IMG/VR virus record: IMGVR_UViG_3300029177_000001
Coordinates: 26,630-90,629 of that record
Origin: a virus
Length of the DNA stretch: 64,000 bases
Direction: 5' to 3' (one strand)
Under the pieces are notes generated by a model that saw only the letters and a program-made list of their open reading frames with translations, searched no databases and was not told the origin of the DNA. Shown in pieces: positions 89 to 7,883 of this stretch. Numbering within the stretch: position 1 is the first letter of the stretch; each line of letters starts with the position of its first letter. The position numbers and the translations under genes were made by a program.

Positions 89-751
89 ATGAATTGTGTC
101 GTGACTAACGACAAATTGTACATTAGGTTAAACTCTGAAGGGGCTCCTGTTACTTGTTCTAAAAGTAATGCTCAGGTTTTTGAAAAAGATAAAGCTGAGA
201 ACATACATAAAAATCTTCCCAAAGTATTGAAGAATTTTCATTTTAGAGTAAAACCTATTTCAAAGTCTGATCAGGAAGTTATTCAGAACAAAACGGATTC
301 AGATAGTGTACAAACAGAACAGAAGAAGTACATAAAAAAAGACTCATACATACCTTGTGATGAGGTTGTACAGTGGATTGAAAAATCAAAACAGTGTAGC
401 GAATTTGTGGAAGAGGCTACGAGAAGAAGAACAGTATTACATAAAAAATTGGCAAATATTGATCGTGAATTGTCAAACTGTATGCATCAGATAGAACTAG
501 AAAAATGGAAATCTGGTTGCGATGGATACAAACTTTACAAGAGAGAAAAAGAAATTTTAGAAAAGAGACGACAGATTAAAGATGAGTTGATAATCATTCA
601 ATCTGTTCTGGACAACACGAAATGTTCTGTTGTAATTAAGAATATTGAAAAGACATTCAATCGGTTAGGAACTAGGCGGTTTGAAGTAAGAATTGTGGAA
701 GACGATGATTTCTTTGATGAATTACAATCTGAAGGAGGCACATTAAAATGA
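89..751 (+). CDS. hypothetical protein
   Basis: ORF track 80..751. ATG at 89 follows aggaaaggg RBS-like purine run. ATGA overlap with next ORF. No domain recognised. Confidence 0.55.
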   Translation: MNCVVTNDKLYIRLNSEGAPVTCSKSNAQVFEKDKAENIHKNLPKVLKNFHFRVKPISKSDQEVIQNKTDSDSVQTEQKKYIKKDSYIPCDEVVQWIEKSKQCSEFVEEATRRRTVLHKKLANIDRELSNCMHQIELEKWKSGCDGYKLYKREKEILEKRRQIKDELIIIQSVLDNTKCSVVIKNIEKTFNRLGTRRFEVRIVEDDDFFDELQSEGGTLK

Positions 752-1392
752 GTAGACTGGACGAAAAAGAAATAGACGAGATATGTAGATTTTATGTAGG
801 AAACAACATGAAGGAAATCAGAAGAATTTGTGACAAGATTTTTTCTAGTACAAATATACCAAAAGGATATTTGGATGACTACTATGGAAAAGCGGTAGAA
901 ATTCTCGTGGAGAGCATAAAAACATACGATAAATTAAAAAAGTGTAAATTCAATACATATTATTATGGGAACCTTATAAGACGAAGAGAAACGTGGAAAA
1001 GAGATAATTTCAGGTTTAAGCGGTGTAATCTTGAAACAGACAAAAAAGGGAAAATTAAAAGGGATAGTAAAGGAAATCCTGTAATTATTACAGATATTTC
1101 TATACATATGAAAGTTGACCCAGATGAAGATTATACATTGGAAGAAAGCATCTCTTCAGGGTTTAATTTGGAGGATGAAGTAGAGAATAATATTTGTCCT
1201 ACTACAGATAGGATTGAAATGTACAAGAGTAATTTATCTTACAAACAACAAAAAGCGGTTGATCTTATTTGTTCTGGATATTCTCAGGAGGAGATTCTTA
1301 AAGAATTGCATATGACAGAGAGAGAATATAGAGATAAGATACTCGGATCTATGCAGCGTTATGAAAATGTAAAAATATTACTACGTAAGTAA
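748..1392 (+). CDS. sigma-70-family-like / HTH transcription factor
   Basis: C-terminal 'QQKAVDLICSGYSQEEILKELHMTEREYRDKI' resembles sigma region 4 / LuxR-type HTH. N-terminal 'YYGKAVEILVESIKTYD..KFNTYYYGNLIRRR' resembles region 2. Translationally coupled to upstream ORF. Confidence 0.5.
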   Translation: MSRLDEKEIDEICRFYVGNNMKEIRRICDKIFSSTNIPKGYLDDYYGKAVEILVESIKTYDKLKKCKFNTYYYGNLIRRRETWKRDNFRFKRCNLETDKKGKIKRDSKGNPVIITDISIHMKVDPDEDYTLEESISSGFNLEDEVENNICPTTDRIEMYKSNLSYKQQKAVDLICSGYSQEEILKELHMTEREYRDKILGSMQRYENVKILLRK

Positions 1393-1412: not shown

Positions 1413-2876
1413 ATGGCAAAGAAAATCAGAAAAAAGACTTTATCTCTGGAATCATACCTGGAGGAAATAGTAGAAGAGGATATCAGTGATAACCAGGATG
1501 TACAAAGGTTATTTTGTTGGGAAAATGGGATGATAAATGAGTTGATCAAAACGGTATTGACCGATGATTATATTCCTCCGATTATTTTGGGCGAAGAAGA
1601 TTTAGATGAAGATGTCGTGCAGCAATATATCGTAGATGGAATGCAAAGAAGTTCTGCATTGATTAAATTTAAGCATGAAAACTATAAAATTACAGCTACT
1701 TTAGAAGATCCGATTATCCAATATCAGAGAAAAAAGAAAGATGAAAACAATAAAATCTGTAAAGATGAATATGGAAAAGTTATTTGGGAATCTGTTGAAT
1801 ATGATTTGAGAAGAAAAACATATGAAATGTTGCCGCCAGAATTGAAAAAAATGTTTGATGATTATCAGATTGATATTACAATACATCAACACTGCACGAT
1901 GTCACAGATTAGTAAGTTGGTGAGAAGATATAACAATCATTTGGGAATGAATACATCTCAGAAAGCATTTACTTATATTGATTTACATGCAAGAAAAATA
2001 AGGACAATATCTGAGAAAAATAAATTCTTTAAAAATTGTATGTCTTGTTCCGGTAAACAGCAATCGAAAGGTATTAGAGAAAGACTTGTATGTGAATCTG
2101 TCATGACAACGTTTTTCTTTGATAACTGGAAAAGTGCAATAAAAAATATGAGCAAATACCTAAATGAGAATGCAACAGAAGAACATTTTGATACTGTAAA
2201 TGAATATTTTAGCAGGATTGAATCTGTGTGCAAAGATAATTTCACAGAAGTGTTTGTGCCAAAAAATGTTATTGTTTGGATTCCTGTGTTTAAAGAGTTT
2301 GCTAAATTTGGATTAGATGATATTAAGTTTAAGGATTTTGTAGAAGAATTTGAAAAGTCTTTATATAAAAAAGATGTAAATGGAGTAACATTTGACAAAT
2401 TAAACGAGGATCGTCATACAAAAGGCAAGGCTATTTTAAAAGAGAAAATTAACATCTTAACTGCTCTCATGAAAGAGTATTTACATATTAAAGAAGATGA
2501 AGGAAACTTTGTTGAAGTAGAAGAGAATAATGTAATTGAAAATGTTTGTACAGAACAGAATACACTAGAATTCATCAGACATAACGTAAAAGAAGATGTT
2601 ATCGAAGATGATATTGAATTGTACAAATCACTGCTAGAAGACTGGTCAGTGGAAGTGGATAATTCGTCAAAACTTCTTGAACCTGGAAATAATAATTCAT
2701 TACTTGCCGTAATTGCATACAGTATTGAAAATGAACTTGATGAAGAAATTCCGGCATGGATGATGAGTTTCTTTAAGAGAAACGATACATATATTAAAGA
2801 TCAGAAAGAGAATTATACATATATGGTGAATGATCTTAGTGAATTTTTGAGACATAAATATGAACTTGCTGGATAG
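1413..2876 (+). CDS. DUF262 (ParB/Srx-fold, GmrSD N-terminal-like) domain protein
   Basis: N-terminus 'QRLFCWENGMINELIKTVLTDDYIPPIILGEE...QYIVDGMQRSSALIKF' matches the DUF262 pattern (QR..W, IP.I, DGQQR-like 'DGMQR'). C-terminal 300 aa unassigned. Confidence 0.7.
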   Translation: MAKKIRKKTLSLESYLEEIVEEDISDNQDVQRLFCWENGMINELIKTVLTDDYIPPIILGEEDLDEDVVQQYIVDGMQRSSALIKFKHENYKITATLEDPIIQYQRKKKDENNKICKDEYGKVIWESVEYDLRRKTYEMLPPELKKMFDDYQIDITIHQHCTMSQISKLVRRYNNHLGMNTSQKAFTYIDLHARKIRTISEKNKFFKNCMSCSGKQQSKGIRERLVCESVMTTFFFDNWKSAIKNMSKYLNENATEEHFDTVNEYFSRIESVCKDNFTEVFVPKNVIVWIPVFKEFAKFGLDDIKFKDFVEEFEKSLYKKDVNGVTFDKLNEDRHTKGKAILKEKINILTALMKEYLHIKEDEGNFVEVEENNVIENVCTEQNTLEFIRHNVKEDVIEDDIELYKSLLEDWSVEVDNSSKLLEPGNNNSLLAVIAYSIENELDEEIPAWMMSFFKRNDTYIKDQKENYTYMVNDLSEFLRHKYELAG

Positions 2877-2893
2877 ATGGAGGTGAATAATAT

Positions 2894-3055
2894 ATGGATA
2901 AAACATTTTGGAACATAATGTCAGTAGGTGGATTAATTACATCGTGTTTAGCCGGCGCTAGATTATATGAAATTGGAGAAGAAGCATTTTTCTATGGATT
3001 TGTATTGGGTATCGGAGCATTGATGTTCGCTGCAAAATATATGGGAGATGAATAG
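2894..3055 (+). CDS. small membrane protein (53 aa)
   Basis: Not in ORF track (<60 aa). ATG 2894 preceded by ggaggtg. Translation MDKTFWNIMSVGGLITSCLAGARLYEIGEEAFFYGFVLGIGALMFAAKYMGDE has two hydrophobic segments. Confidence 0.45.
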   Translation: MDKTFWNIMSVGGLITSCLAGARLYEIGEEAFFYGFVLGIGALMFAAKYMGDE

Positions 3056-3159
3056 GAAAGAAAATGACAGTGGAAGAAATGCGACAGAAGATTGAAGAGC
3101 CGACAGGAGCAGAGATCGAGATTGTATAAATGTAATAATTAAAAAAGGAGAAATAAATT

Positions 3160-3924
3160 ATGTGTGAATTTAAAAGTGGAATTATTTTTAAGAATAGGGT
3201 GGAACTTGCGCCATTAGGGAATGAAAGTCATTCAAGTTTACTTGAAAACTTGGATGTAGAAGATAATGAATTTAATGCTTCTAAGAAATTTGTGAGAGCA
3301 GAATTAATTCCGCCAGAGAGATATGTTATCACTTCTGATATTTCAAAGTGGACTTATAAAGTCGATCAGGATATTGTGCCAGAATGGTATAGTAACGATC
3401 CAGAGAGATATGAAGAGGAATTTAAAGAATCTGTTAAGAATTTTATGGATAAAAATTTTACAGATGAATTTGGATATTATTGGACAAACATTCGAATGGA
3501 TGGAAAGATATATCATTTTATGTATGGAGTTCTTACGAAGATGAGTTTTGGTAGCAATAATAATTACGCAGAATCTTCTGTAAGAAAATATCTTAAAGAG
3601 CACAAACTTGCAAAAGACATTAAAGATAAATATGGGAATAGTATTGTTCCGTTTGAAAATAACTTGCTTAGTATGGATGGATTTAATGATTATGGCGTTG
3701 TAAAAGACGATGTATTATCTATTCCGACATTTTATTTATTCAGAAAATGTGGTGAAAAACTTCCATTAATCAATTATGCATACTGGCAGTCAACTCCAAA
3801 CCAGACACCGTCAAGAAAAGATTCTTCCTATGTTCAGGTTGTCTACAGTGGTGGGAACATGGGTTACGACGATTGCTGCTGGCTTGATCATGGGGTTCGT
3901 CCGTTTTTTATCACCGAATCTTAA
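3160..3924 (+). CDS. DGR variable (target) protein, C-terminal C-type-lectin/DUF1566-like fold
   Basis: C-terminus 'YWQSTPN...SYVQVVYSGGNMGYDDCCWLDHGVRPFFITES' contains the VR. The '...W..HGVRP' ending is typical of CLec-fold DGR targets. RBS aaaggag upstream of ATG 3160. Confidence 0.9.
   Translation: MCEFKSGIIFKNRVELAPLGNESHSSLLENLDVEDNEFNASKKFVRAELIPPERYVITSDISKWTYKVDQDIVPEWYSNDPERYEEEFKESVKNFMDKNFTDEFGYYWTNIRMDGKIYHFMYGVLTKMSFGSNNNYAESSVRKYLKEHKLAKDIKDKYGNSIVPFENNLLSMDGFNDYGVVKDDVLSIPTFYLFRKCGEKLPLINYAYWQSTPNQTPSRKDSSYVQVVYSGGNMGYDDCCWLDHGVRPFFITES
3826..3905 (+). repeat. DGR variable region (VR)
   Basis: 80-nt alignment to 4411..4490 at constant offset 585. 13 mismatches, every one at an A in TR. 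All 55 non-A positions identical. Confidence 0.93.
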
Positions 3925-3953
3925 ATCTGTTTATCTTGTCGATAACATTTTGT

Positions 3954-3998
3954 GGAGACGAAGACAGAACAATGCGCAAGCGTTGTTCGTAAGTCTCC
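3954..3998 (+). promoter_or_regulatory. stem-loop downstream of VR with GCAA (GNRA) tetraloop
   Basis: Inner hairpin 3967..3988 'gaacaatgc-GCAA-gcgttgttc' (9 bp including one G-U). Outer pairing ggagac(3954-3959)/gtctcc(3993-3998). Lies 49 nt 3' of the VR end. Confidence 0.7.
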
Positions 3999-4027
3999 GA
4001 AGAACTAAATGCAAGATTGGGGGTCAT

Positions 4028-4381
4028 GTGGAAGTTATTACAAAAGCTATTGATTTGATGCAGTATACATATTCTGTAACTTCAAATAAAAAGAGATATC
4101 CTGCGAAATATAGAATGCTTATAGAACGAATCCAGAATGAGTGTATGAATATATATGATTTCTTAATGAGCGCAAATAGAGTACAACTGAATATTGATAG
4201 ACAAGAAAGATTGGAATTGCAAACAAAATCGATTTCGTCATGTGACAAATTGTCCTGCTATGTTGAATTATCAATGAATATTAACCTTATAGGATCAGAT
4301 ACAGTTGAATATTGGCAGAAAAAGATATGCGATGTTAAGTACATGACAATAGCATGGAGAAGCAAAGATAAAACAAGATAA
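4028..4381 (+). CDS. avd: DGR accessory variability determinant (Avd)
   Basis: C-terminal 117 aa of ORF 3776..4381 ('VEVITKAIDLMQYTYSVTSNKKRYPAKYRMLIERIQNECMNIYDFLMSANR...'). Helical, basic, Avd-like size, and located between target and TR. Start uncertain: GTG 4028 after ggggg, or ATG 4058. Confidence 0.7.
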   Translation: MEVITKAIDLMQYTYSVTSNKKRYPAKYRMLIERIQNECMNIYDFLMSANRVQLNIDRQERLELQTKSISSCDKLSCYVELSMNINLIGSDTVEYWQKKICDVKYMTIAWRSKDKTR

Positions 4382-4410
4382 AATTTTTTTTGGTTGTTTG
4401 CTATATGACT

Positions 4411-4490
4411 TCCTATGTTCAGATTGTCAACAGTAATGGGAACATGAATTACAACGATTGCAACTGGAATAATCATGGAGTTCGTCCGTT
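4411..4490 (+). repeat. DGR template region (TR)
   Basis: Invariant copy of VR. Rich in AAC/AAT codons in the target reading frame (SYVQIVNSNGNMNYNDCNWNNHGVRP). Confidence 0.93.
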
Positions 4491-4609
4491 CTGGATCGGA
4501 AGACGAAATAGAGTAAGAGAAACACTGAAATTAGAGTCCCGATATCAAAAGAGCAAACAACCTTTCCTGTCTAATCAAAGACAGGATAAATACAAAGGTA
4601 GAATATATC
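4411..4609 (+). ncRNA. DGR template RNA (TR plus spacer region preceding RT)
   Basis: Non-coding 119-nt spacer between TR and the RT start contains hairpin cctgtct(4566-4572)/agacagg(4579-4585). ORF-track ORF 4390..4623 is just a translation of this RNA. Confidence 0.7.
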
Positions 4610-5647
4610 ATGATAAAAGGTAAAACAGATTTTGAAAAGGTATCGGATTTTGAAAATTTATATAAAGCGTATTTGGATTCAAAAGGTGGAAGAGGATTCA
4701 CAAAAAGCAGAATTAAATTTGAAATATCTGCCCTTGATGGGGTGTACCAGATTAAAAGACTTTTAGAAACAAAGAGATATGAAGTAGATAGATATAACAG
4801 ATTCAAAGTATATGAACCAAAAGAGAGAATTATAGAAGCAGGAAGTTTTAAAGACAAGATTGTGCAGCACAGTTTGTGTGACAATGTACTTCTTCCTATT
4901 TTAAGTAAGGAGTTTATATACACGAATTATGCTGGACAAGTAGGTAAAGGGACATTGTTTGGCTTAGACTGTTTGAAATATCAGATGTATTTAGCATATC
5001 AAAAATATGGATATGATTGCTGGATTATCAAAGGAGATATCAAAAAATTTTTTTATAATATTGAGCATGATGTTTTGAAAGATATTGTTTCTTACTTTAT
5101 ATCAGATTCAGATACATATTGGCTGTGCGAGAAATTCATTGATAGCACAAGTGAAAAAGGTCTACCGCTTGGAAATCAAGTTAGTCAGGTATTTGCTTTG
5201 TTATATCTCTCTGGTTTTGATCATTTTATAACCGGAGAATTAGGAATTAAATATTACGGGAGATACATGGATGATTTTTACTTAATTGTAGAATCAAAAG
5301 ATTATGCAAAATTCTGTTTACATGCTGCTGAAGAGTTTACTAAAACATTAGATATTGATCTGAATGAAAAAACTCAGATTATTCCTTTTAAAAATGGAAT
5401 TAAATTTTGTGGTTTTCACACCTATGTTACAAAAGATGGAAAAGTGATAAGAAAACTTGCAAATGAAAAGAAGAGAAAAGCAAAAAAGAAATATCGAAAA
5501 ATGGCAAAGATGTTAAGAGAGAATAAGTTATCAAAAGAAAAATTCCTAGAATCTTATGAATCTTGGAAGAATCATATTTCACATGGAAATTGTGTGAAAT
5601 TCACGTATGAGATGGACAAAATGGTGAATGAAATACTGTTTGGTTGA
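4610..5647 (+). CDS. DGR reverse transcriptase
   Basis: Motifs 'LPLGNQVSQVFALLYL' ([LIV]GxxxSQ, DGR hallmark), 'GRYMDDFYLIV' (YMDD) and 'IKFCGFH'. About 345 aa, typical DGR RT size. Confidence 0.93.
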   Translation: MIKGKTDFEKVSDFENLYKAYLDSKGGRGFTKSRIKFEISALDGVYQIKRLLETKRYEVDRYNRFKVYEPKERIIEAGSFKDKIVQHSLCDNVLLPILSKEFIYTNYAGQVGKGTLFGLDCLKYQMYLAYQKYGYDCWIIKGDIKKFFYNIEHDVLKDIVSYFISDSDTYWLCEKFIDSTSEKGLPLGNQVSQVFALLYLSGFDHFITGELGIKYYGRYMDDFYLIVESKDYAKFCLHAAEEFTKTLDIDLNEKTQIIPFKNGIKFCGFHTYVTKDGKVIRKLANEKKRKAKKKYRKMAKMLRENKLSKEKFLESYESWKNHISHGNCVKFTYEMDKMVNEILFG

Positions 5648-5796
5648 AATGTCGATTTCATCTGAAAATAAACACAATATATAGTGGTTCTGGTTAGGTA
5701 CAAATACTACATATTGTATGTATAATTCCTGAGATGGAAGTCATATACGGACAGTCATTGCAAGAAATGAATTGCAATGCGACAACTGTCACTTCG

Positions 5797-5901
5797 TCAA
5801 TTATCTCTTAGGATAATGGCGATAATGCTCATGGACGAATTCCCACTTCTGGAGCCGGAACCGCCAATAAGCATCGACATGAACCATATTATATTCAGCA
5901 T
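5797..5901 (-). CDS. candidate minus-strand mini-ORF (34 aa, hydrophobic)
   Basis: Minus-strand aggag (plus 5910-5914) lies 8 nt before ATG (5901). Peptide MLNIIWFMSMLIGGSGSRSGNSSMSIIAIILRDN. Lies in a 390-nt gap with no credible + ORF. Confidence 0.3.
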   Translation of the reverse strand: MLNIIWFMSMLIGGSGSRSGNSSMSIIAIILRDN

Positions 5902-6038
5902 AAAATCATCTCCTGGTTTCATGCAGACGAAAATATATCGCATGAATTTATCTGGATGATTTCTTGTATGTGGTGGTTGTCATAAAACAGTATATAACAA
6001 AATTTGAATGAAAGCAAATAGAAAAGGAGAATAAAACT

Positions 6039-6410
6039 ATGACAGTATATGATTTAGTAGCAATTGTGAATTTACTAGAAGACAAAAAACAAAAAGATTA
6101 TGGGTTTGCTTTATACAAGGAAGAATATGAATTACTTAGAACAGCAAGCTTAGAAAATACACTTGTAGTTGTTAATGCAAGAGGAAAAGATAGGAGAGTA
6201 TTAGGAAAAGTAAAAGTGATTTTACCTGCGAGTGTATATGGTAAATATCCTACAGCTCAGGTAGTTGGCGTTGTTAATATGGAGGCATATTCAAAACGTA
6301 AAGAGGAAGAAGAACGTATTGATAGAATCAAAGAAATAAATCGTTTAATTAATAAGAACAATAGAGAGTTAGTGAATTTAATGACAGAACTAAGAAAATT
6401 AGAAGGGTAA
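6039..6410 (+). CDS. hypothetical protein (C-terminal coiled coil)
   Basis: aaaaggag RBS before ATG 6039. No domain recognised. Confidence 0.6.
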   Translation: MTVYDLVAIVNLLEDKKQKDYGFALYKEEYELLRTASLENTLVVVNARGKDRRVLGKVKVILPASVYGKYPTAQVVGVVNMEAYSKRKEEEERIDRIKEINRLINKNNRELVNLMTELRKLEG

Positions 6411-6427
6411 AAGGAGAAATAAATAAT

Positions 6428-6610
6428 ATGAAATATCCATTCCAGTGCTCTAAATGTGGACACAAAGAAATTATTACAATGTCAATGAAAGAATACGTAG
6501 GAGAAGGGCATATGTGTCCTGAATGCGGAGAAGAAATGCAACGAGAAATTGACTCGATGGTCTGTAGAAGTATTGATAAAACAGGAGACTTTTACAGAAG
6601 CTTCAATTAA
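6428..6610 (+). CDS. zinc-ribbon protein (FmdB-like CxxC...CxxC)
   Basis: 'FQCSKCGH...HMCPECGEEM' has two CxxC pairs. aaggag RBS. Confidence 0.6.
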   Translation: MKYPFQCSKCGHKEIITMSMKEYVGEGHMCPECGEEMQREIDSMVCRSIDKTGDFYRSFN

Positions 6611-6624
6611 CGATTTATAAAAGT

Positions 6625-6695
6625 TGTGGATTAGTGTAACTGGTAGCACGATGCAGCGTGGCACATAAGTAAAGGTTCGATTCCTTTATCTACAA
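6625..6695 (+). tRNA. tRNA-like element with aberrant anticodon arm (possible pseudo-tRNA)
   Basis: Hand fold: 7-bp acceptor tgtggat/atctaca, U8, D arm gtgt-aactggta-gcac with GG, and perfect T arm aaagg-TTCGATT-ccttt. The 20 nt between position 26 and the T arm give no 5-bp stem with a 7-nt loop. No encoded CCA. Confidence 0.4.
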
Positions 6696-6696
6696 T

Positions 6697-6774
6697 TCAT
6701 ATGCAGAACAATTTCCTATACATGTTTCATGACTCCAATAAAATAAGATACATAAAGTTCTGCATATGATTTTT
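6697..6774 (+). terminator. long hairpin followed by T-run
   Basis: 13-bp perfect inverted repeat tcatatgcagaac (6697-6709) / gttctgcatatga (6757-6769), 47-nt loop, then ttttt (6770-6774). Confidence 0.45.
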
Positions 6775-6942
6775 CATTGGTGTTTATAATCAAATATCAC
6801 CTAAAGTAAATCAAATATTTAGAAACTGTAAACGTTGATTCAACAAACTATTTCATTTGTCGCTATTTGAAAATGTTTGTGAGCTGCATGTGATATAAGA
6901 TTGTAAATACCGATGTGATTAATATTAAAAGAGGTAAGTCAA

Positions 6943-7485
6943 ATGAGCAGTTGGACATATGTACATGGAACAATTGTTGTTTCTCCTCTAGGTAGGACAC
7001 AACATGAAAAGAGATATATTCTTGAAACCGCACTCGATCATCTTCCTGTCGTAACAGGGTCAGAAAGAGATATGGAAGTATATGTGATTCAAAAAAGAGG
7101 ACATAATTGTTCAAGTTTTTCTGACGAATTTCTTGAGAGAACAAATAATTTGAGAGATAGATATGGAGACAGAAATCGGAAACGAGGGTTCTTACGAACG
7201 CAAGACGAATATATTCTCGTTGTTGATGGATCACTACGTGATAGAGAGTTTAAAGATACATTTCAAGAATTTATGAAATGGATTTGTAGATTGTCAAAAC
7301 GAGTTATTGTATACGATGTAAATGTAAAAATTTGGGGATTTGATAAGCAATATTTTATCAATAATCCAGATCAGTTTTCTGATATGTATGAGTACAAAGA
7401 TAATTGGTGTAATTACTTAATGTGGGAATATGATAGAAATGAAGAAGGAAGTTTATTAAGTGGAAAGCCAGGGAAGAAAAGATGA
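6943..7485 (+). CDS. hypothetical protein (paralog of 25258..25647)
   Basis: aagaggtaag RBS. Shares 'MS.WT.V', 'LP..GSE..E' and 'G.LR....F.E..KW' with ORF 25258. Confidence 0.6.
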   Translation: MSSWTYVHGTIVVSPLGRTQHEKRYILETALDHLPVVTGSERDMEVYVIQKRGHNCSSFSDEFLERTNNLRDRYGDRNRKRGFLRTQDEYILVVDGSLRDREFKDTFQEFMKWICRLSKRVIVYDVNVKIWGFDKQYFINNPDQFSDMYEYKDNWCNYLMWEYDRNEEGSLLSGKPGKKR

Positions 7486-7883
7486 GAAAACCTAAAGTAG
7501 AAAATAAATACAACTTAACAATGAAGAAAATCCAAAAACTCAAAATTGGTGATGAGTACAAAATTAAGAAACCTTTATTTTGGAGAAATAATATTATTAA
7601 TGCATGGTGTATTAATGGAACTGTTGGAACGTATCAGGATATAAAGTACTGTACATATAATGAATTTTGGATAGGGATATATGATAAACCATATTGCAAT
7701 AGTAGAATTCGTGCTTATTGTAATTGTTGGGGAGGAATGGGTACTTATAAATTTGACAAGTTTTTTAGACCTGAAGATATTGAGTGTGAAAATGATTTAA
7801 AAGTACAGGAAGAGTTGTTAAAAACAATAAATAATTTGATTGATGAAGGGATTTTGGTGATGGAAGATGGACGGAACAGTTAA
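7482..7883 (+). CDS. hypothetical protein
   Basis: ATGA overlap with upstream ORF. No domain recognised. Confidence 0.55.
   Translation: MRKPKVENKYNLTMKKIQKLKIGDEYKIKKPLFWRNNIINAWCINGTVGTYQDIKYCTYNEFWIGIYDKPYCNSRIRAYCNCWGGMGTYKFDKFFRPEDIECENDLKVQEELLKTINNLIDEGILVMEDGRNS

Follow-up and report, generated by a model that had tools for sequence, protein, structure and literature searches.

A DGR variable repeat, likely from a functional cassette of low present turnover, in a large uncultured gut phage or prophage

We analysed a 64,000-nt stretch of viral DNA, referred to here as the window, that carries a pair of direct repeats next to a reverse transcriptase (RT) gene. In our judgment these repeats are probably the variable repeat (VR) and template repeat (TR) of a canonical diversity-generating retroelement (DGR), an RT system that alters the tip of a phage binding protein at adenine-templated positions. 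They lie in a large uncultured gut phage or prophage and belong to a cassette that is functional in type but turns over slowly in the lineage represented by the window. That the cassette is a DGR we hold with high confidence. The VR is an almost fixed outcome of earlier homing, with apparently little diversification at present, and the perfect identity of VR and TR at non-adenine positions shows copying from the window TR type but not that such copying is frequent now.

Results

The VR/TR repeat pair

The VR occupies positions 3824..3905 of the + strand, 82 nt that end 19 nt short of the end of the target ORF, and the TR occupies 4409..4490 on the same strand, in the non-coding interval between avd and the RT gene. 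A sequence-only reading had paired VR 3826-3905 with TR 4411-4490 at a constant offset of 585, and when we realigned the two copies we recovered exactly its 13 mismatches, at TR positions 4423, 4429, 4435, 4436, 4447, 4448, 4453, 4462, 4463, 4468, 4469, 4471 and 4479. The TR base is A at 13/13 of these sites, this 80-nt stretch of TR holds 25 A, and all 55 of its non-A positions are identical in VR. The repeat itself starts two bases further upstream than in that reading, at 3824/4409, which gives the length of 82 nt. If 13 mismatches were placed at random, the probability that all would land on the 25 A sites is 1.7e-8 (hypergeometric). Read in the frame of the ORF at 3160-3924, the altered codons are seven AAY, one ATT and one silent GGA to GGG change, and the encoded peptides, ...IVNSNGNMNYNDCNWNNHG... 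for TR and ...VVYSGGNMGYDDCCWLDHG... for VR, are those reported before. Adenines at codon positions 1 and 2 are the usual DGR design, and 24 of the 25 TR adenines fall at codon position 1 or 2.

The homology stops at ...CGTCCGTT (3905/4490), and the bases that follow are TTTTATC on the VR side and CTGGATC on the TR side. A candidate IMH/IMH* boundary at this point is plausible from the alignment, and no GC-rich IMH of the BPP-1 type is present at the end of homology. Within the 64-kb window there is no second VR-like repeat; the only other 254-aa ORF we considered as a second target (28862-29626) is unrelated and was rejected. Scans for the exact TR in IMG/VR, JGI metagenome contigs and GTDB genomes returned no matches.

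One of the mismatches, at TR 4471, probably has a different origin from the others. This position is polymorphic in the window lineage, with A in 11 samples and G in 8, and the equivalent base is G in the TR of a sister lineage, in most of the closest other TRs, and in every independent VR allele written from the window TR type. Because G is found in the 8 lineage samples, in the sister TR and in the VR alleles, G would be ancestral, and the A of the window TR is more probably a recent G to A change in TR that has not been passed to VR. Adenine mutagenesis would thus account for about 12 of the 13 mismatches.

The target gene and its genomic setting

The target gene, at 3160..3924 (+), encodes a protein of 254 aa with an N-terminal domain and a C-terminal C-type-lectin-like/DUF6273 domain that bears the VR, so that the VR lies where DGRs place it, at the C-terminal end of a variable protein of C-type-lectin or Ig fold. 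Pfam at default thresholds gave no match for the target, whose score for DUF6273 (PF19789) is 11.1 bits, below the gathering threshold of 23.5; a relative that is 80% identical to it (P0037) reaches 26.4 bits. Structural matches of the target to DUF6273 proteins support its placement with DUF6273. The protein carries neither a signal peptide nor a lipobox.

Neighbouring genes include a GmrSD/DUF262-like gene, a sigma-factor-like gene and small early-type genes that are Lar-like and YopX in relatives. All genes in the 64-kb window lie on the + strand. Among its ORFs are ones annotated as DNA polymerase, helicase, primase, ligase, NrdD, methyltransferase and tRNA-maturation enzymes; every annotated ORF of at least 200 aa belongs to nucleic-acid metabolism, and no structural gene is found among the window ORFs of that size. 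When the cassette plus 24 kb of the window was compared with deposited phages by megablast, no real match emerged. The contigs of relatives measure 80-190 kb, and some relatives lie inside Mb-size bacterial contigs. From the gene content, the lack of a similar deposited phage and the context of the related contigs, we conclude that the host replicon is a large uncultured gut phage or prophage, with the cassette in its replication region.

Reverse transcriptase and Avd

The RT gene (4610..5647, +) encodes a DGR reverse transcriptase of 345 aa with LGNQVSQ and YMDD motifs, which fit the DGR-clade motifs [I/L]GxxxSQ and YxDD, and it adjoins the TR. The protein matches Pfam RVT_1 at 1.1e-13 and phrog_1423 at 1.2e-106. 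In a comparison with the PDB the closest solved RT structure is the Bordetella phage bRT (8ub7_A, 5.7e-31), and the group II intron and retron RTs score 1e-12 or worse. Known DGR phages are among the tblastn matches of the RT, and the closest RT from a deposited phage, that of DGR phage nd12, shares 47.5% aa identity with it. At positions that are at least 90% conserved in 52 relatives, the window RT shows no lesion beyond I/L and L/V exchanges, and lesions of this kind were therefore rejected as the cause of the VR stasis described below.

The accessory gene avd lies at 4028..4381 (+) and encodes 117 aa if translation begins at a GTG; it has matches in both NCBIfam and PHROG. The best of these is to the PHROG 'Avd protein of DGR' family (3.9e-17), and the match to NCBIfam DivGenRetAVD (5.6e-8) is full length; the scores fall under the curated cut-offs of both NCBIfam and Pfam, and the PDB holds no sequence match for Avd. 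The choice of start codon is uncertain, since translation from an in-frame ATG at 3890 instead would yield 163 aa. The window start reads TTGGGGGTCAT-GTG; relative to the sister lineage, 3 nt are missing from the Shine-Dalgarno region, and an out-of-frame ATG at 4026 overlaps the GTG. The sister start reads TTGGAGTGATTTAT-ATG and has a good GGAG Shine-Dalgarno sequence at 8-nt spacing. This start region is the clearest difference between the window cassette and the hypervariable cassettes of the sister lineage. Promoter and terminator scans of 2800-6200 were uninformative, with fewer promoter-like sites than in shuffled sequence.

RNA and DNA structure elements

The TR is bracketed by a long-range duplex, whose 5′ strand (4392..4402, +) pairs with 4552-4562. 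The latter strand is part of the TR-RT spacer RNA (4491..4609, +), which continues with a hairpin (4566-4572/4579-4585) and an A-rich tail containing the ribosome-binding site of the RT gene. Across 31 aligned cassettes, 98% of the cells of the 11-bp duplex 4392-4402:4552-4562 are paired, as against 42-46% in slid controls, and compensatory changes occur at 8 of the 11 duplex pairs and 6 of the 7 hairpin pairs. Taken together, the duplex and the hairpin at 4566-4585 have 94.6% of cells paired and 14/18 pairs with compensatory changes, a result matched by 0/500 shuffles. Cryo-EM of the Bordetella element has described an avd:Sp duplex named 'cPRT Stop' along with a stem-loop and adenosines (Handa et al., bioRxiv 10.1101/2023.10.23.563531), and the same work predicted this duplex architecture in 207 other DGRs (bioRxiv 10.1101/2023.10.23.563531). 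The duplex and hairpin in the window correspond to this 'cPRT Stop'. A stem-loop guessed at 4481-4507, spanning the TR 3′ end and the start of the spacer, was dropped for lack of support across the family.

A second hairpin, at 3967..3988 (+), has the form GAACAATGC-GCAA-GCGTTGTTC, a 9-bp stem with one T.G pair and a 4-nt loop. It is AT-rich and begins 62 nt 3′ of the VR end. At the equivalent position other cassettes have different stems, GGCATGGC/GCCGTGCC in L017, GGAATGC/GCATTCC in L020 and GGCGTAGGGA/TCTCTACGCC in L023, and the loops of these post-VR hairpins are GCAA or GTAA rather than GRNA. Published DGR target hairpins or cruciforms lie 4-34 bp from the VR, are GC-rich and have a GRNA tetraloop (Guo et al. 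2011, PMC3240598). By comparison with these, we regard 3967-3988 as a candidate target-recognition hairpin that departs from the published pattern.

The wider family and a hypervariable sister lineage

IMG/VR contains 571 contigs that encode relatives of the RT. We fetched 80 of them, and in nearly every one the order is VR-avd-TR-RT and the mismatches are A-biased. Among them is a sister lineage of 23 loci, whose RT is 88% identical to that of the window and whose TR is invariant. Its VRs differ from this TR at A in 346 of 351 mismatches, all 23 TR adenines vary somewhere, and the 23 loci carry 20 distinct VRs. Where two sister loci agree at every base of about 2.1 kb of flanking cassette, their 82-nt VRs differ at 8-17 positions. 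An invariant TR beside a variable VR among related genomes, as seen here, is the TR-to-VR direction of information flow expected of a DGR, and by these sequence comparisons the sister lineage is diversifying very fast.

The window TR and the sister TR differ at eight positions, six of them non-A, and at 6/6 of these non-A sites the window VR has the window state. This agreement indicates that the window VR was copied from its own TR type after the two TR types split.

Turnover of the VR in the window lineage

Samples of the window lineage were retrieved by their exact RT, the ORF that runs in the Avd frame from 3890, and the upstream 53-aa protein, and VR was not part of the conditions. This gave 20 distinct samples from many studies, with VR covered in all of them. 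Samples of this lineage include DRR784429, ERR13731401, SRR19378502, SRR23801911, SRR33512794, ERR12528263, SRR27390238, SRR15832810/11, SRR31672562, ERR14035014 and ERR525722. In 19 of the 20 independent samples VR is base-for-base identical to that of the window, as judged from assembled consensus sequences, in which minority variants within a sample are invisible. The exact target protein is present in 40 collection blocks, compared with 36 for the exact RT.

The genomes that share this VR are not copies of one another: the SNP at TR 4471 is split 11:8, some have IS605/TnpB just 3′ of RT, and several show recombined sequence downstream of RT that is 83-97% identical. The lineage samples, 0-3 SNPs apart over at least 4.4 kb, could owe their uniformity to a very recent origin, although VRs do differ between sister pairs that are just as uniform. 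With two VR alleles in 20 samples here and 20 in 23 sister loci (Fisher p = 3.6e-7), the observable VR turnover of the window lineage is at least 10-fold below that of the sister lineage.

The single exception among the 20 samples is L108, whose VR differs from that of the window at 3868, 3869, 3877, 3878, 3883 and 3884, all of them adenine-templated, while the rest of 3.2 kb is identical except for TR 4471. The probability that six random changes within 3.2 kb would all fall on the 25 A-templated sites is about 2e-13. Two of the L108 bases (TT) are absent from both TR and the common VR, and for this reason we rejected the idea that L108 is an assembly chimera of TR and VR. Six A-templated changes between unchanged flanks thus mean that at least one very recent, partial homing event took place in the window lineage.

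These observations bear on the sequence-only reading, which had argued from the perfect non-A conservation for recent, active mutagenic retrohoming and had proposed raw reads or related contigs as the place to look for it. The related contigs went against it, the same VR being found in 19/20 samples. Of the claim as a whole, the fresh event in L108 stands as a single instance of recent homing, set against a VR that is near-fixed, and homing that is both recent and active in the window lineage is weakly supported.

Relatives without the cassette

The post-VR hairpin, avd, TR, spacer and RT form a presence/absence unit at 3952..5642 (+), a block that is absent from relatives that keep the target gene. 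In the cassette-less relatives L089-L098 and L126-L129, the sequence corresponding to 3057-3951 is joined to that of 5643-7870 with about 14 nt between them. Long contigs with the exact 123-aa downstream protein keep a target orthologue (about 90% nt identity) and lack 3952-5642 in 10/10 cases, and four IMG/VR contigs likewise keep the orthologue without this block. IMGVR_UViG_3300045988_159471 and _164182 are examples of cassette-less contigs. A motif at the TR end and spacer is present in 21 IMG/VR contigs; none of the four IMG/VR contigs without the cassette has it, two of those four being about 160 kb long, and a scan of GTDB with the spacer motif gave no matches. A diverged cassette may serve the cassette-less phages in trans. 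Cassette loss, and splitting of RT by IS605/TnpB, are common among relatives.

The orphan VR alleles left in these relatives have 12, 15, 15 and 18 (+1) mismatches with the window TR, confined to A apart from the +1. By locus, the adenine differences from the window TR number 12 in L089, 15 in L093, L097 and L127, and 18 in L126, with 0-1 non-A differences. Judged by this pattern, the orphan VRs are DGR products of the window TR type. Counting those of the window and L108, a TR of this type has yielded at least six VR alleles historically. Identical orphan alleles recur across genomic backgrounds with 1-2 extra non-A substitutions (L091, L092, L098 and L129), which fits what would be expected of frozen VRs that drift by ordinary mutation.

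Discussion

The assignment of VR and TR and the DGR reading given by the sequence-only reading hold up, and they are backed by the neighbouring genes, the RNA elements, the fold of the target and related cassettes in their hundreds. A conventional tandem-type duplication, in which 82 nt of coding sequence were copied and then diverged by point mutation, with RT an unrelated neighbour, would explain that a direct repeat exists and nothing further. It would leave to chance the placement of 13/13 differences on A of one copy (P = 1.7e-8), the fact that the invariant copy is non-coding and adjoins an Avd gene and a DGR-clade RT, and the same arrangement in hundreds of contigs. We regard the duplication reading as refuted by the A-only mismatches, the Avd/RT context and the recurrence, and assign it almost no probability.

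The more relevant alternatives concern how active the cassette is. The window VR could be one of many co-circulating alleles of a DGR in rapid, ongoing diversification, as the perfect non-A identity of VR and TR, the intact RT, Avd ORF and RNA elements, the L108 allele changed at A-templated sites only, and the clearly hypervariable sister lineage would all allow. We think this improbable, however, because the same allele was found in 19/20 samples retrieved independently of VR, the exact target protein occurs in 40 blocks and the exact RT in 36, and the allele has outlasted a TR substitution, IS insertion and recombination in the downstream flank. At the other extreme, the DGR could be decaying and functionally dead, with the cassette kept but no longer homing and the VR a relic in a genome heading for the cassette-less condition of its relatives. 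The stasis of VR, the substitution at TR 4471 that never passed to VR, the change of the avd start from ATG to GTG with a 3-nt deletion at the Shine-Dalgarno sequence, and the frequency of cassette loss or IS605/TnpB-disrupted RTs in relatives are what such decay would produce. We consider this just as improbable: the six A-templated changes of L108 in otherwise identical DNA need recent homing, VR and TR have no non-A differences although the orphan VRs of L091, L092, L094 and L126 already gather them, and neither RT nor the RNA elements have lesions. Between these extremes, a cassette of functional type with low turnover in the window lineage is the reading we prefer.

By analogy with BPP-1, such a cassette would work through an RT-Avd complex that binds an RNA spanning the avd 3′ end, TR and spacer, the shape of which would be held by the duplex 4392-4402:4552-4562 together with the hairpin 3′ of it. 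Reverse transcription with random misincorporation opposite adenines would then yield a cDNA that takes the place of VR in the 3′-terminal part of the target gene, and some 16 codons that specify the binding face of the C-type-lectin-like domain would thereby be rewritten. By genetic-code arithmetic, the eight AAY codons and eight other A-containing codons permit about 1e14 protein variants.

The RNA elements are intact in the window cassette. For the low turnover we infer as a candidate cause a reduced supply of Avd, which might follow from the ATG to GTG change and the damaged Shine-Dalgarno sequence; an alternative, also inferred, would be selection for the VR allele or a recent sweep of the identical block of at least 4.4 kb.

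The cassette resembles that of BPP-1 (mtd VR - avd - TR - brt) in its gene order, with avd, TR, spacer and RT coming in turn after a VR at the target 3′ end, and also in its adenine-specific mismatches and the C-type-lectin fold of its variable protein. A further likeness is the 'cPRT Stop', in which the avd 3′ region pairs over a long range with the spacer, ahead of a hairpin and adenosines. It differs in that its TR is 82 nt rather than 134 nt, it is without a GC-rich IMH, its AT-rich hairpin is 62 nt away from VR with a GCAA loop instead of GAAA/GRNA, and the identity of its RT to bRT is low. In addition, its target is small (254 aa) and encoded in the replication/early region, whereas that of BPP-1 is a tail-fibre gene in the structural module. 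Phages of gut Firmicutes have DUF6273 DGR targets, among them the 'tentaclin' Tgt2 of nd4/nd12 and those of the Faecalibacterium phages Lelie, Roos and Pioen (PMC10743442, PMC11792537). The window shares with these phages a DUF6273/C-type-lectin-like target with VR at its C-terminal end and the human gut as habitat, but its RT is less than 50% identical to theirs, its phage backbone is unrelated (no megablast match), and it has a single target, located among nucleic-acid-metabolism genes of a phage or prophage of roughly 100-190 kb. Treponema denticola TvpA, one of the other DGR variable proteins with a C-type-lectin fold, is a lipoprotein from a bacterium and falls in the FGE-type subclass, whereas the window protein belongs with DUF6273 and has neither a signal peptide nor a lipobox.

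DGRs with DUF6273/C-type-lectin targets have thus already been described in gut phages, and nothing here is new in kind. The useful part is that one element can be seen in three states, namely the hypervariable sister lineage, the near-fixed window lineage, and relatives that are cassette-less or have an IS-split RT. This series is natural material for asking what turns DGR activity off, and the Avd translation start is a concrete candidate for a difference between active and static lineages. It also advises caution in reading other elements, as an A-only VR/TR pattern means that homing happened and not that homing is frequent now.

As for the role of the target, the lack of a signal peptide, the early-type neighbours and the non-structural 64-kb context leave open that it is a putative early intracellular binder, such as a counter-defence or host-takeover factor, and not a virion receptor-binding protein. 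We think this doubtful, and a virion accessory protein encoded outside the structural module is more likely. If the intracellular reading were true, the product diversified by the DGR would be a phage weapon aimed at variable host defences, and the bursts, stasis and cassette loss would mirror an arms race with those defences. The only hints of the host come from a target homologue that is 72% identical, in Lachnospiraceae bacterium 6_1_37FAA, and from a 64-bp megablast match to a Mediterraneibacter gnavus phage.

Cassette-less relatives and orphan VRs

In many related phages (loci L089-L098 and L126-L129), the target gene is retained and the entire hairpin-avd-TR-spacer-RT block (window 3952-5642) is exactly missing, with approximately 14 nt of TATATATAGTTAA-like sequence in its place. 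The VRs of these cassette-less relatives still carry the adenine-only signature of the window-type TR. The same orphan VR alleles, i.e., VRs kept without avd, TR, and RT, are found repeatedly among these phages with 1-2 additional non-A changes.

Variation in TR and in the target protein

Within the window lineage, which is otherwise identical, TR position 4471 of the window is polymorphic, with A in 11 samples and G in 8. The ancestral state at this position is probably G, and the change turns GAT into AAT, thereby creating a new diversifiable codon. A target-protein variant, P0123 (251 aa, from a Logan contig and known here from protein), has an in-frame deletion of 3 aa immediately upstream of VR as well as two codon changes in VR, of which only the first of the pair can be assigned to an A-templated site; this variant may be a low-coverage assembly error.

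IS605-family insertions at the RT gene

In one sub-group of the sister lineage (L042-L048), the RT gene is interrupted after approximately residue 254 by an IS605-family OrfB/TnpB element, which comprises 377-aa and 99-aa ORFs and lies at about 4776-6180 in locus coordinates. The VRs of two members of this sub-group, L042 and L043, differ at 14 positions despite their common disrupted RT and identical flanks; this difference could stem from complementation in trans, from recombination, or from the element having inserted very recently. In several window-lineage genomes (L083, L087, L088, L102, L103, L109, and L120), the element is located just 3′ of RT, near window 6029, rather than within it.

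Gene calls in and around the cassette

The annotation of Avd in public assemblies varies among gene callers, being either uncalled, a 117-aa protein starting at GTG 4028, or a 163-aa protein that starts at ATG 3890 and overlaps VR (window 3890-4381, + strand). A 72-77-aa ORF spanning TR (window 4390-4623, + strand) is also called at times in these assemblies and is probably spurious. Downstream, Rfam calls a tRNA at window 6625-6695 on the + strand (46.9 bits, full-length model); an ARAGORN scan of the whole window returned zero tRNAs, including at this site.

Upstream of the target gene, an additional gene of 197-199 aa separates the 53-aa gene from the target in both sister and cassette-less relatives (L089 2182-2775; L001, a sister-lineage locus, about 1905-2451; corresponding window site about 3042-3057), whereas it is absent from the window lineage. 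The product of this extra gene had no significant match in Pfam or PHROG. Two genes upstream of the target is a gene (window 1413-2876, + strand) whose 487-aa product has an N-terminal domain resembling GmrSD_N/DUF262; the version of this protein in relatives is 722 aa long. A sigma-factor-like ORF lies at window 748-1392.
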